A program made the translations under genes and the position numbers. The notes below the pieces were generated by a model. The model had not been told where the DNA came from and ran no database searches. It saw nothing but the letters and a program-made list of their open reading frames with translations. 19,880 nt of DNA from positions 1-19,880 of the forward strand of contig JBFXLE010000042.1 of NCBI GenBank assembly GCA_050173015.1, read 5' to 3'. Below, piece by piece: positions 4,507 through 19,617 of the stretch. The stretch's first letter is position 1. Every line of letters starts with the position of its first letter. This DNA is from Calditrichaceae bacterium (GTDB lineage Bacteria; Calditrichota; Calditrichia; Calditrichales; JBFXGD01).

Positions 4507-4595
4507 CGGACGTATTCTTTTTTTTTCTAACCTACCCCGAGTCAGATAAAGATACCTCTTAACTCTTCAACTTCTTACTTCCTACTTTTATTCTT

Positions 4596-4652
4596 CCCAA
4601 GCAGGCAGAAGATTCCTCTTTCCTAAACCCGCCTCTGGCGGGCAGGATGACA
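4596..4652. repeat. Cassette type 1 (cccaagca.gcagaagat...caggatgaca), long allele
   Basis: Second copy at 4972-5004 is 24 bp shorter and lacks the internal CCCGCCTCTGGCGGG palindrome. Confidence 0.8.
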
Positions 4653-4763
4653 TGTATAGAAGCCTGTCGTGAATTACCGGGACGCCCCAACTCTTAACTC
4701 TTATACTCTTAACTCTTAACGTTCTTACTTCCTACTTCTTACTTCCTACTTTTCTTTCTCTCC

Positions 4764-4873
4764 CTACTTTTTGAATGGCCAAAAAGTAGCAAAAAGCCCT
4801 GGCGAATTTTAACTCGTGTATAATTTATCCGTTTTTCAATTTACTCCACTCGAACAGAAAATTCGCCCCGAAG
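4764..4873 (-). repeat. Cassette type 2, double-hairpin element
   Basis: CTACTTTTTG-6nt-CAAAAAGTAG hairpin (4764-4789) plus GGCGAATTTT...AAAATTCGCC arms (4801-4810/4858-4867). Highly similar copy at 12187-12295. Confidence 0.88.
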
Positions 4874-5081
4874 AGTTTCTCAACACAATGGTTGAATCTT
4901 AAACTCTTAACTCTTTTTTCTTTTTTCTTCCAATTCCTACTTCTTACTTCTTACTTCCTACTTTTATTCTTCCCAAGCAAGCAGAAGATCCTTCCAGGAT
5001 GACAAATTTGTGAGTGTAATCGGACGACTCAAATAATATCCATGAATGCCACTCGGCCGCTCCAACTCTTACACTCTTAAC

Positions 5082-5635
5082 TCTTTTTTCTTTTTTCTTT
5101 TATCTTTTTTCTTAAAATTCCTACTTCTTGTCTGAACTATGATTGGCCTGATTTAATGAAAACTCTGATTTCCAATTTCTTAATCATCCGAATCATTTAA
5201 TCATTTTAATCCACCAGAGGCGGACACGCCCCGGTTCAGACCGTTCTTAATCTTTTTTCTTTTTTCTTTTATCTTTTTTCTTAAACTTCTTACTTCTTGT
5301 CTGAACTATGATTGGCCTGATTTAATGAAAACTCTGATTTCCAATTTCTTAATCATCCGAATCATTTAATCATTTTAATCCACCAGAGGCGGACACGTCC
5401 CGGTTCAGACCGTTCTTAATCTTTTTTCTTTTTTCTTTTATCTTTTTTCTTAAAATTCCTACTTCTTGTCTGAACTATGATTGGCCTGATTTAATGAAAA
5501 CTCTGATTTCCAATTTCTTAATCATCCAAATCATTTAATCATTTTAATCCACCAGAGGCGGACACGTCCCGGTTCAGACCGTTCTTAATCTTTTTTCTTT
5601 TTTCTTTTATTTTTTTTCTTAAAATTCCTACTTCC
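5082..5635. repeat. 169-bp tandem repeat, about 3.3 near-identical copies, each holding a 112-bp element with terminal inverted repeats
   Basis: GTCTGAAC starts at 5130, 5299 and 5468 (period 169) and each element ends in GTTCAGAC. Only a few substitutions between copies. Confidence 0.95.
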
Positions 5636-5687
5636 TACTTCTTACTTCCTACTTCCTACTTCCTACTTCCTACTTCCTACTTCTTAC
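5625..5687. repeat. (TTCYTAC)9 heptamer microsatellite
   Basis: Nine consecutive TTCCTAC/TTCTTAC units. Confidence 0.95.
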
Positions 5688-5694
5688 TTCCTCT

Positions 5695-11494: not shown

Positions 11495-11901
11495 GAGACT
11501 TATCCAGGTTTAATGATAGAATAATGAGACTTGTCTAAAAAAATGTTATCTATGTGAAAATAGATATTGATTCTAACGCGTTTGGGTCGTCAGGGAATCA
11601 TTGCTTCCGGAGAAAGCCATTAAAATTCTTATCGGATCAATGACTGTGAATCTTTAAGGTGAATTTATAGAACAGGGAAGTGATTAAAAATTTATTTTGT
11701 TGATGGTACAATTTTACGCAGGATGCAATGGCCGCGGATGTTTACATCCGGTTTCTGTTTTTTTTGCCTGCTTTTAAACACGGATATCCCCGCCCCCACT
11801 CTCAACTCTTACACTCTTAACTCTTTTTTCTTTTGTCTTTTTTCTTTTATCTTAACCTTCCTACTTCCTACTTCCTACTTTTCTTCTCCACTCCGGCCTT
11901 A

Positions 11902-12069
11902 CAAAAAAATCGGTTGAAATTCAGGTGAGCGGAACGGCTGAAATTCTTGCTGTCTGAGACCGCCGCCAGGCGGGCGAGTTTAAGAATTTCAGTGCAGCGA
12001 GCCGTTTAATTTCCCGATTTTTTGGGACAGCCATGATCTTTTGGTTCTTTTCCATCAAGGGAAAAGAAC
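11902..12069 (+). repeat. Long hairpin element, a divergent relative of cassette type 2
   Basis: Nested arms AAAAAATCGG/CCGATTTTTT, GAAATT/AATTTC and CTGAAATTCTT/AAGAATTTCAG around CTGTCTGAG..CGAGTT. Terminal GTTCTTTTCC-6nt-GGAAAAGAAC hairpin. Confidence 0.8.
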
Positions 12070-12186
12070 AAAGAAACATCAGTTCTGATTTCGAAATACA
12101 AACGCTACTAGGATCTCTGAAATCTTTTTTCTTTTTTCTTATTCTTACTACTTCCTACTTTCAACTTCTTACTTTTCTTTCTCTCC

Positions 12187-12295
12187 CTACTTTTTGAATG
12201 GCCAAAAAGTAGCAAAAAGCCCCGGCGAATTTTAACTCGTATAAATTTTTCCGTTTTTCTAATTCTTCCACTCGGACAGAAAATTCGCCCCGAAG
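12187..12295 (-). repeat. Cassette type 2, second copy
   Basis: Arms identical to 4764-4873; differences concentrated in the loop. Confidence 0.88.
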
Positions 12296-12340
12296 AATCC
12301 AAACACTGCTTTGGGATTAACAACCAGATTATCCTGACCA

Positions 12341-12435
12341 GTAGAACAGGGATTCCCGGTGTAATTGTTCGACCCCGACGGGGTCGCCGGATTTTGTGGG
12401 GTCTGTTTTCTACAATAATTTCATCCCTTCGGGAT
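12341..12435. repeat. REP-like composite palindrome
   Basis: GTAGAACAG...CTGTTTTCTAC arms enclosing CGACCCC-GAC-GGGGTCG (12370-12386), followed by the hairpin ATCCC-TTC-GGGAT. Confidence 0.7.
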
Positions 12436-12543
12436 TTGGATTGACGTATGAATTGAATCCCCGAGCTTGATTTAAAATGTTGGATGAATTGGACATGAAA
12501 ACCCCATGCCGGAGGTGTCGCATTTTTGTGGAACTCCAATAAC

Positions 12544-12576
12544 AACCCCCTTAGTCACCCTTTAGCCAAGGGGGAA
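12544..12576. repeat. CCCCCTT/AAGGGGG REP-like palindrome
   Basis: aacccccttagtcaccctttagccaagggggaa. Confidence 0.6.
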
Positions 12577-12648
12577 ACGCCCATTCCCACTCTTTTTTCT
12601 TTTATCTTTTTTCTAAACCTTCTTACTTCCTACTTCTCACTTCTTACT

Positions 12649-12673
12649 TAGGGCACGAGCCTCGTGCCCCTAC
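12649..12673 (-). repeat. GTAG-type REP sequence
   Basis: Minus strand GTAGGGGCACGAG-G-CTCGTGCCCTA: a GTAG foot plus a GC-rich palindrome. Confidence 0.8.
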
Positions 12674-12854
12674 TCATGACTCTTTCCTCTTAACACTCTT
12701 CAACTTCTTACTTCCTACTTCTTACTTCCAACTTTTCTTCTACGCCCCGAAGAAATCCGCAACACAATAGCTGAATCTTAAACTCTTAACTCTTTTTTCT
12801 TTTATCTTTTATCTTTTTTCTTCAACTTCCTACTTCCTCCTTCCTACTTTTCTT

Positions 12855-12883
12855 TTGTGCCAATAGTAAATTTTGTGTACTAT
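12855..12883 (+). promoter_or_regulatory. Putative sigma70 promoter for the beta-CASP/aminopeptidase genes
   Basis: TTGTGC-N17-TACTAT immediately after array B. Confidence 0.45.
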
Positions 12884-18277: not shown

Positions 18278-19617
18278 TGGTTCAGTCAAAATTGGAATTT
18301 TAAAAGGATTTAGTGCTATGATTTAAACCTTCTTATAAGGAGTAATATCATGGCAAGAAAATCAGTTAGACACTTTACCCCGGAACAGAAATTAAAGATC
18401 ATAAAAGAGGGTTTTTTGCCCAATGTTCGGGTTGCAGATCTATGCCGTTATTACGATATTTATCCCACAGATTATTATCGTTGGAAAAAATTAGCGGAGT
18501 CTTCAATGATTGATGGATTAAAACCCAAAAAGAAGAAACAAAAGCCATTAAGTAAACGCGGGCAGGAATTACAACAAGAGAATGAACGCCTTCAGGCATT
18601 AATTATCCAGCTAACCAAAGAACATTTAGAGCTTAAAAAAAAGTACAGGAATCGGAATAAAGAACCGATTTTGCAGATTCGAAAAAAAAGATATTCTGGA
18701 TTTTATGAAACATATCAGACACTAACCGGAACGGATAAAAAGATCATTCTCAAACACCTGGGTTTAAGGCCCTCAACGTATTACAAGTGGCTACATCGTT
18801 ACGAGCACAAAAGTTTACACGATCAAAAGCCGGTAGGCATGAATCCTTATCGTTTGTTAGACTGGGAAAAGGAAGCGATACATGATTTTTACATAGATAA
18901 TCAGGAAAACGGTTACCGGCGAATCACATATATGATGATAGATCAGTACATCGTATCTACAAGCCCCCTCAACAGTTTACAGGTATTTAAAAAGTGAAGG
19001 ATTACTCATGCGATGGGCCCCGCCTCGCATACTTGGCCCCAAGCCAGCGCTGCCCACCGCACCCAATCAGAAGTGGCATACGGACTTAATGATTCTGGCA
19101 ATTGACGGTAATAATTATTACTATCAGGGTATCATAGATGCTTACAGTCGCTGAATTATCGCCTGGGATATTTATGCAGAAGGTAGCGCTTTAAATACCA
19201 GCCTGCTTCTGCAGGATGCCTATGATAAATCACCCGAAGGAATAAATCCTGTGGTTATTGCGGATAACGGTCCTGAGTTTACCGGCAAAGAATTTCGAGA
19301 AATTATAAAAGTTCATCAAGGCAAAGATGTGCGTATTGCTGCCTATCATCCGCAGAGTAACGGTATAGAAGAACGATTCCATCGCACACTGAGTGAGAGA
19401 AGAAGGATTAAGCCGCTATCATAACCTGATAGAAGCAAAAGAAAAAGTCGGTAAATGGATTAAATATTATAACAAATACAGACTACATTCATCCATTCAG
19501 TATATGCCGCCGAAAGTTTGGCATTTTGGTGACCCGGGCGTGAAAGCTGATGAAAGAAGACAGAAGTTAGAACAGGCAAAACAAGAACGTCATATAGAGA
19601 ATAAAGTGGTGGTGTAA
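18278..19617 (+). mobile_element. IS3-family insertion sequence, degenerate; right end not identified
   Basis: Putative left end TGGTTCAGTCAAAATTGGAAT, OrfA HTH, slippery A8G run at 18635-18643, and DDE integrase-like core. Confidence 0.85.
18350..19617 (+). pseudogene. IS3-family transposase pseudogene
   Basis: Stitched frames give ..PNQKWHTD..IDAYSR*IIAW..IADNGPEF..PQSNGIEERFHRTL/REE..YNKYRLHSSI. Lesions: frameshift at the C5 run 18964-18968, TGA at 19152-19154, and a 4-bp duplication at 19390-19397. Confidence 0.88.

Follow-up and report, generated by a model that had tools for sequence, protein, structure and literature searches.

Tandem repeats of seven-base units are common in several bacterial phyla and have been without an accepted explanation for decades; the short tandemly repeated repetitive sequences (STRRs) of cyanobacteria, for example, are intergenic heptanucleotide repeats. 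Described cases include GGGNATC repeats, found in Xanthomonas and in Nostoc (Rehm et al. 2015, PMC4692102), and, in Beggiatoaceae, cyanobacteria and Bacteroidetes, repeats of TAACTGA (MacGregor 2015, PMC4679880); the latter report also mentions mixed heptamers in one spacer (in Microcystis and Bacteroidetes), indels in steps of seven bases and contigs that end in repeats. Here, the heptamer tracts of a Calditrichaceae bacterium (assembly GCA_050173015.1) are analyzed, starting from its contig JBFXLE010000042.1 (C42), the entire length of which, 19,880 bases, is the window of this study. The tracts of this genome are composites of different heptamers that follow each other in a set order, and this order rule is real and statistically clear.

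The tracts resemble the heptamer simple sequence repeats (SSRs) and STRRs in several respects, as the seven-base units are arranged head to tail, the tracts are mostly intergenic and dispersed over the genome, contigs break in them, and their length changes in whole units between close strains (here seen as a 14-base indel and as a 49-base difference). Small dispersed repeats of Nostocaceae reportedly lie inside tandem heptamer repeats, and this is similar to the present case in that small, mobile-looking modules are found in heptamer tracts; here these modules are 20–190 bases long, belong to several families and have a block-ordered tract as their host. The G-quadruplex heptamers (Rehm et al. 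2015) have runs of G in each unit, whereas G makes up 0.8% of the tracts discussed here, which are unable to form quadruplexes on this strand, and the main units have GG at most on the other strand (TTCCTAC reads GTAGGAA). Neither PMC4692102 nor PMC4679880 mentions, in its available part, that blocks follow a fixed order, and no published heptamer repeats in Calditrichota were found in literature searches; the genome paper of Caldithrix abyssi describes, in its available part, only an 18-base palindrome (PMC5317091). The TAACTGA and GGGNATC arrays are built from one unit type each, whereas 185 of the 278 tracts of the present genome have two to four unit types in a fixed polar order; also different from the heptamer SSRs are the conserved non-repeat words between the blocks, the linking of other dispersed modules by the tracts, and the absence of any tendency of the tracts to lie directly before start codons.

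Concerning the architecture, two other systems can be compared. The repetitive extragenic palindrome (REP) clusters or bacterial interspersed mosaic elements (BIMEs) of Enterobacteria are intergenic mosaics of hairpin repeats and linker motifs, in which the REPs alternate in orientation, and the BOX elements have sub-modules of 45–59 bases. The present arrays are also intergenic hairpin and linker mosaics with a regular syntax, and the REP of one of the module families (Sf) also flanks a Y1 transposase gene, a setting like that of the REP-associated tyrosine transposases (RAYTs); here, in contrast, the elements are co-oriented (in 66 of 69 arrays, and 31 to 1 for REP relative to tract), and the linkers are long heptamer tracts. 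BOX of Streptococcus pneumoniae consists of boxA, boxB in n copies and boxC (Croucher et al. 2011, PMC3049150), and, as described in the available part of that paper, it is a composite interspersed repeat with a fixed sub-module order and a variable inner copy number, the longer arrays being more variable, as in the present case. BOX has a stem-loop, terminal inverted repeats and target duplications, whereas the tracts have seven-base units, do not fold (88% unpaired as predicted) and are without inverted ends, so that the comparison is one of architecture. As an ordered composite in which the inner module varies, the tracts have their nearest parallel in BOX, and as a hairpin/linker mosaic, the arrays have theirs in the BIMEs.

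Fixed block order of the heptamer tracts

The source genome (G000; 4.34 Mb, 54 contigs, 41.9% G+C, 97.5% complete) was searched as a whole, on both strands, for tandem dimers of three unit types, giving 929 seeds in 191 clusters. The parser recognizes the units A (ACTCTTA, some copies of which are one or two bases longer), a (CTCTTTT), B (CTTTT[T/A/G]T) and C (CTTC[C/T][T/C]A, or TTCYTAC in the other register), and its genome-wide output is 278 tracts, grouped into 124 arrays. The window has exactly 12 of these tracts; the initial annotation, made from the window alone, had reported a conserved order for about 12. As 45 of the 108 contig ends are at most 500 bases from a heptamer tract, the actual tract number is above the counted 278. 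An assembly artefact as the source of the tracts is ruled out, since the identical syntax is present in the independent assembly of a congener (G001, with flanking genes 80–89% identical to those of the source genome) and in contigs from a metagenome assembly that represent a closer relative (with flanks 91–99% identical); a search of the metagenome contigs with a single 30-base flank word gave no match.

The fixed block order that had been proposed for the window is found throughout the genome, where the order is clearly not random: 160 of the 185 tracts with at least two block types run strictly A, a, B, hinge, C, whereas block-order shuffles (n = 2000) give a mean of 62.5 ordered tracts (SD 5.9, maximum 81). 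When one tract per array is used, which limits the counting of tandem copies, 82 of 91 tracts are ordered, compared with 31.9 ± 4.2 after shuffling. Adjacent unlike units show 281 forward steps and 31 backward steps, and the latter consist of 16 cases of a single B-like terminal word (TTTTCTT/TTTTATT), in agreement with the earlier observation that tracts often end in these words, and 15 cases in which the head of the next tract abuts. The same polarity is seen in the simple junction patterns of the source genome (35 from B to C against 2 from C to B, and 13 from A to B against 0 from B to A) and in the composite B-to-C junctions, which occur 38 times in the source genome and 49 times in G001, the reversed junction occurring 2 and 1 times, respectively. 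Because the tract copies are related, the shuffles concern a rule of form and not independent origins.

When reread, the four tracts that had been given as examples (4902–4971, 5064–5128, 11798–11887 and 12781–12856) are as described. The span 4689–5128 indeed consists of heptamer tracts, but it is not a single tract, being three tracts that are split by non-heptamer modules at 4762–4897 and 4972–5063. Tandem Repeats Finder (TRF) detects period-7 arrays at all the tracts named in the initial annotation, with the units AACTCTT at 4689–4720 (4.4 copies), TTCCTAC at 4722–4751 (4.3 copies), TCTTTTT at 4912–4929 and 5082–5113, TTCTTAC at 4934–4971 (5.7 copies) and TTCCTAC at 5625–5692 (9.7 copies), and also at 11798–11880 and 12591–12849. 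The near absence of G from the plus strand, noted before for the window, extends to the 12,371 tract bases, of which 54% are T, 30% C, 15% A and 0.8% G, and every heptamer unit of the tracts has the form NNNNCTT on the G-free strand.

The master sequence and the variation inside the blocks

A search for a master sequence, which had been suggested as a check, shows that all tract forms are reducible to one. Its first part is CCCC, (ACTCTTA)2, ACTCTTTT, CTCTTAACGCT and the B block (CTTTTTT, CTTTTAT, CTTTTTT), and after the B block it continues with the CTTAAA hinge, (TTCCTAC/TTCTTAC)n and TTTTCTTCTCC; the common B-less form, CTTAACGCT-CTTAAAT, is this master minus the B block. The C block, which most often reads CTTCCTA-CTTCCTA-CTTCTTA or CTTCCTA-CTTCTTA, has the most variable copy number (1–30 units). 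The B block has 1–6 units, with a mode of 3, and the commonest patterns of its sixth base are T-A-T (18), T-A-A-T (15), T-T-A-T (14) and A-T (13). The hinge variant CTTATCC is present at 11 places in the source genome and at 6 in G001; the variant CTTGTCC is present at 7 places in G001 and at 0 in the source genome, and it has therefore been copied between loci after the species split.

The first of the two origins considered in the initial annotation, descent from one master with slippage in each block, is supported by the common master, by the conserved order of the B variants and by the seven-base-step differences between relatives. This description is incomplete, as recombination between like blocks of different tracts also carries the order, thereby deleting, inserting or swapping modules.

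Arrays of co-oriented tracts and modules

There are 69 multi-tract arrays in the genome, and in 66 of these all tracts are on one strand. The arrays have tracts at both ends, and in the arrays of the window every spacer between tracts is itself a dispersed repeat, with ~6–50 copies. Each module family has a constant orientation and constant junctions, to a C block on the left and to an A or B head on the right. For Sb, the left C block with its tail and the right A/a–B head are present in all 15 near full-length copies; of the 10 near full-length copies of Sc, 9 are followed by an A block; a C-type left flank and a B-type right flank are seen in 9 of 11 copies of Sd, one copy having the B head only and one being without any tract; and Se is preceded by a C block in 5 of 7 copies. 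The modules are mosaics of smaller pieces, with invariant hairpins. The stems of Sb, Sd and Sf are nearly invariant, with 0, 1 and 1 double-sided changes in the covariation test, and covariation is thus uninformative on RNA function.

When 29 arrays are folded as RNA, the unpaired probability is 0.88 for the tracts (0.74 on the other strand) and 0.48 for the modules (0.42 on the other strand). According to these predictions, the tracts would be unstructured, polar linkers between dispersed hairpin modules. No terminal inverted repeats are present in the tract. Stand-alone tracts, having unique DNA on both sides, also occur, and the tract is therefore a unit in its own right. The largest array expansion is seen at C34:24202–27786, a ~3.6-kb array of repeated composite units of 730–970 bases with a run of N inside, where the close relative has 233 bases.

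The midpoints of 243 of the 278 tracts are outside open reading frames (ORFs) of at least 90 amino acids in a rough gene call, and some of the remaining 35 are in spurious ORFs over the repeats. No gene family is recurrent at distances of up to 2.5 kb from the arrays, save for large paralogous families and such spurious ORFs, and in this the arrays differ from integron cassette arrays with their neighboring recombinase gene, as they also do in having tracts that are predicted to be unpaired rather than palindromes like attC. There is no strong rule for the orientation of arrays relative to the neighboring genes (pairs 28/17/15/10 in the tract frame, for 70 arrays), the association with GC skew is weak (46 to 30), and the promoter- and terminator-like sites at the arrays are not in excess over shuffles.

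The idea that a gene for a four-helix-bundle protein of the 23S rRNA intervening sequence protein (IVP) type, or for a reverse transcriptase, would accompany the tracts has not been borne out. The sole IVP gene (C38:2898–3206, minus strand) is 2.5 kb from the nearest tract, and the inverted tracts that enclose it (C38:2700–3600) belong to another heptamer family, GGCTATT/GGCTATC/GGCTGTT, the words of which also flank an Se module on C27. The reverse transcriptase family RVT_1 has 0 matches in the whole genome.

Differences between orthologous arrays

All nine bracketed loci that could be compared with the metagenome relative differ in length, by 49 to 3351 bases, and one of the differences from this relative consists of a 14-base (two-unit) indel in the C block and a one-unit shift in B. 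At C1:53.7k, a single full tract is present in the relative, whereas in the source genome the same outer half-tracts enclose ~520 bases of tract-module repeats. At C1:264.8k, both the relative and G001 have a tract-module-tract arrangement with homologous modules, whereas the source genome has one A–C tract with 14 C units; when the three sequences are compared, the best reading of the source form is that a deletion took place between the two C blocks, with subsequent expansion. At the C7 locus, one module family is replaced by others with respect to the relative, and the C block differs by 8 units.

In G001, the orthologous tracts are found at unchanged positions, yet whole blocks have been gained or lost. 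The ortholog of tract T8 of the window is in the same place but is without the B block, the ortholog of T7 has a longer C block, and at C6:60.7k the source genome has a–B–C, whereas G001 has A–A and the tail. The array that follows the MarC-family gene is ~250 bases long in G001 and ~1,100 in the window, with common outer parts and with 4739–5588 being extra in the window. A clean empty site for a tract was not recovered in these comparisons, the difference between locus L064 and C3 being a complex indel. The metagenome contigs of the close relative also join contig ends of the source genome across heptamer arrays (loci L135, L169 and L132), connecting the C6 end with the C13 start, the C46 start with the C34 start, and the C16 start with the C39 end, and these joins could serve for scaffolding the source genome.

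Taxonomic distribution

Three tandem TTCYTAC units are found 284 times in the source genome and 184 times in G001, and among the 41 relatives searched they are found in 9 further genomes, at most 24 times in each; the back-to-front control of this search gave zero. The composite B-to-C junction is present in 3 of 86 Calditrichota genomes, namely in the source genome, in G001 and, three times, in G034. In a prokaryote-wide scan with one genome per species, 65 stretches were found, 37 of them in one Calditrichaceae metagenome-assembled genome (MAG) record and 2 in another; the remaining 26 are single matches in unrelated taxa, some of which show other compound heptamer tracts. Four other genera have the TTCYTAC word in plain tracts without A or B blocks, and some of these plain tracts are in inverted pairs (G004) or beside other heptamers (G034). 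From this distribution, the C-type heptamer is old and widespread in the order, and the ordered composite with its modules is an elaboration found in the source genus. Compound tracts of the CTTNNNN type are also seen outside the Calditrichota, in a Bacteroidetes MAG (L049) and in Microcoleus (L062), as exemplified by CTTTTGT/CTTTTAT, then CTTCCTA, then CTGCCAC; mixed heptamer tracts with common words are thus not limited to Calditrichota.

Proposed mechanism and alternative explanations

Block order, co-orientation, fixed junctions, unit-step changes and the turnover of modules between relatives are directly observed. On balance, it seems probable that slippage inside the blocks, combined with recombination of co-oriented tracts at their like blocks, explains the arrays. 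In this model, the tracts would be copies of one lineage-specific non-coding linker of ~100 bases, the seven-base units of which would have diverged into the ordered blocks A, a, B, hinge, C and tail, and the block order would be inherited rather than rebuilt. The linker, which would not pair with itself, would sit between small hairpin modules, giving the co-oriented tract-module-tract arrays of the intergenic gaps. Three processes may act on it. Replication slippage would gain or drop whole units inside a block; recombination between like blocks of two co-oriented tracts would delete or duplicate the intervening DNA; and exchange between tracts of different loci would move or swap modules and spread linker variants. 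Polarity and order would be self-maintaining, since in-register recombination is possible only for like blocks that point the same way. The recombination is presumably driven by homology, and the arrays would be neutral or selfish DNA without a dedicated function.

Several points weigh against this model. It leaves unaccounted for the first spread of a G-free tract without terminal inverted repeats to more than 100 loci. The comparison covers three genomes, in which insertion and deletion are not always distinguishable. Both arrays of the window reach start codons, and some tracts are therefore probably transcribed. Finally, plain (TTCYTAC)n is kept across several families of the order, for longer than one might expect of a neutral repeat, which hints at a maintaining mechanism or a function.

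The last two points lead to the possibility, which is considered rather unlikely, that the tracts have a function of their own as unstructured pyrimidine-rich stretches (AGGAAG-rich on the other strand) of transcripts or of DNA, for instance as platforms to which a protein would bind or as insulators that separate hairpins, selection then keeping the order. It agrees with this possibility that the tracts are predicted to be single-stranded between structured modules, and also that, in 45 of 70 arrays, the gene on the side of the A head is directed away from the tract, such that the purine strand would lie in the leader of this gene. Heptamer repeats have also been proposed as translational control sites in Beggiatoaceae, according to the available part of PMC4679880. 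However, the orientation relative to the neighboring genes is inconsistent, block content and copy number vary freely at orthologous loci, and tracts and modules come and go at 91–99% flank identity. The composite form is, moreover, confined to one genus and three junctions in one other genome, and the arrays have neither an excess of promoter- or terminator-like sites nor an Rfam match beyond a chance-level one to PhotoRC-I.

It is also unlikely that the tract is a landing pad, that is, the target of a single-strand Y1/HUH transposase, with the YTAC words of the C block taking up REP-type or miniature modules in one orientation, each bringing its A or B head. IS608-type Y1 enzymes insert 3' of TTAC, and in the present arrays the sequence before every module family is ...YAC followed by T-rich bases, although this junction is equally that of the plain heptamer register. 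That arrays start and stop with tracts is as predicted by this explanation. There are four Y1 (IS200/IS605-type) transposase genes in the genome, each with its own local flanking hairpin repeats. The REP core AHCCCGAAGGGDT has 62 genome copies, 24 of which flank the Y1 gene at C5:165006–165467 (12 per side), and of the other 38 copies, 32 are no farther than 400 bases from a heptamer tract and are oriented alike relative to it, 31 to 1. These tract-associated copies are inside module Sf, just upstream of the A head, and the copy of the window is at 12421–12435. The C5 locus (L208, C5:163999–166279) has the gene of a 154-residue Y1 transposase between two co-oriented runs of 12 hairpins, ATCCCGAAGGGAT/ACCCCGAAGGGGT, a layout like that of RAYTs, and the other Y1 genes, at C4:46025, C22:62133 and C10:10717, have different flanking hairpin repeats each. 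The C5 protein matches the IS200/IS605 transposase model of NCBIfam with 75.1 bits, and the RAYT model is unmatched by it, a paralogue scoring 24.3 bits with the latter model at a cut-off of 80.

Against the landing pad, the REP is present in one module family only (Sf) and is absent from Sb, Sc, Sd and Se. Unlike in a REP-RAYT system, most modules have no REP of any of the four Y1 loci, and the transposase scores as IS200-type and not as a RAYT. The complete genome G003 has the same hairpin beside a 67% identical Y1 homologue but zero TTCYTAC trimers, and the enzyme alone therefore does not create tracts. In G001, the best match to the transposase is 34% identical and the cognate enzyme was not found, and a clean insertion with its empty site was not recovered. 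An IS200/IS605 origin of all modules is rejected, since the flanks of the Y1 genes at the four loci share no long similarity with the arrays and three of the loci have other REPs.

It is very improbable that the tracts are made anew at each site by a stuttering reverse transcriptase or telomerase-like enzyme, which was the second origin considered in the initial annotation (templated iterative synthesis with stuttering), as only the repetitive, polar make-up favors it, whereas the 97.5% complete genome has no RVT_1 match (differing in this from the repeats templated by a reverse transcriptase, such as those of diversity-generating retroelements, retrons and telomerase-like enzymes), no gene recurs beside the arrays, the conserved variant order in the blocks and the common non-repeat words (CTCTTAACGCT, CTTAAA and the tail) point to copying of the whole sequence, and the changes between relatives are those of unit slippage and recombination.

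The two arrays of the window

The first array of the window (4555–5694, all elements on the plus strand) is between a MarC-family gene and a DUF1801 gene. It begins with tract T1 (4555–4595), a worn A–C–tail form that abuts the unique DNA after the MarC gene, and this is followed by module Sa (4596–4688), the left half of which is Sc-like, with the hairpin CCCGCCTCTGGCGGG and 13–30 partial copies in the genome. Tract T2 (4688–4761) has an A block, an AACG word, a C block and the tail, without a B block. Module Sb (4762–4897) has two invariant inverted repeats, CTACTTTTTG/CAAAAAGTAG and GGCGAATTTT/AAAATTCGCC, and ~32 copies, of which 15 are near full length. Tract T3 (4898–4971) reads A, a, B, hinge, five C units and tail; module Sc (4972–5063) has 16–54 copies in the genome; and tract T4 (5064–5128) reads A, A, a, four B units, hinge and a short C block. 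Thereafter, three copies of module Sd (5129–5243, 5298–5412 and 5467–5581), each closed by GTCTGAAC/GTTCAGAC, alternate with the B–hinge–C tracts T5 (5244–5297) and T6 (5413–5466), and this alternation is detected by TRF as an array with a 169-bp period (5075–5634, 3.3 copies, 97% matches). The array ends with tract T7 (5582–5694; four B units, hinge and nine C units) at the TTG that is listed as the start of the DUF1801 ORF.

The second array (11797–12856, also on the plus strand) is between a MutS-family gene, which is on the minus strand, and a metallo-beta-lactamase/RMMBL gene. Its first tract, T8 (11797–11889), has unique DNA on its left and is complete, with A, A, a, four B units, hinge, three C units and tail. 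Module Se (11890–12075; 6–11 copies) is in the same place in G001 but for a ~50-base indel. It is followed by tract T9 (12121–12185; two B units, a worn C block and tail), by a second copy of Sb (12186–12300), of which the 3' end is missing, and by Sf (12340–12445), the minus strand of which carries, at 12421–12435, the REP hairpin core ATCCCGAAGGGATGA, the same core that flanks the Y1 transposase gene elsewhere. A small hairpin module (12541–12585), CCCCCTTAG...AAGGGGGAAAC, belongs to a seven-member spacer family and precedes tract T10 (12586–12649; a, two B units, hinge and four C units). Then follow a GC-rich palindrome module (12650–12671), AGGGCACGAGCCTCGTGCCCCT, with ~26 copies, tract T11 (12672–12743; a worn A block, five C units and tail) and a 3' fragment of Sb (12744–12776), GCCCCGAAGAA...GCTGAAT. 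The last base of tract T12 (12777–12856; A, a, four B units, hinge, three C units and tail) is one before the GTG start of the metallo-beta-lactamase/RMMBL gene.

In the window, no tRNA was found by the tRNA scan, and no Rfam family reached its threshold in the scan at gathering scores. The match to PhotoRC-I at 4603–4641 is the sole array match at E values up to 1, and it is at chance level (17.9 bits compared with a gathering score of 45, E = 0.59). On the minus strand, 9189–9597 matches RF01766, the cspA thermoregulator RNA family, with 63 bits (E = 2e-14), which does not reach the gathering score of 78 of this family, and the match probably marks the gene of a cold-shock protein with its leader. 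Near the contig end, the ORF at 18350–18997 has the transposase domains HTH_Tnp_1 and HTH_28 and resembles the first ORF of an IS3-family element.

Implications

The arrays break the assembly, and they are consequently underrepresented in short-read genomes of this group. The link between the REP of module Sf and a Y1 transposase provides a lead to an enzyme. If the landing-pad explanation were true, the arrays would be a gene-free cassette system with a heptamer repeat as its attachment site, and this would give a concrete molecular role to heptamer repeats. In this genome, one polar, conserved linker is made up of different heptamers, and comparison of close relatives allows its slippage, its in-register deletions and the exchange of modules to be traced. 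The turnover of this linker is a workable model for how such tracts may be kept up and for how they may reshape intergenic DNA within a species.

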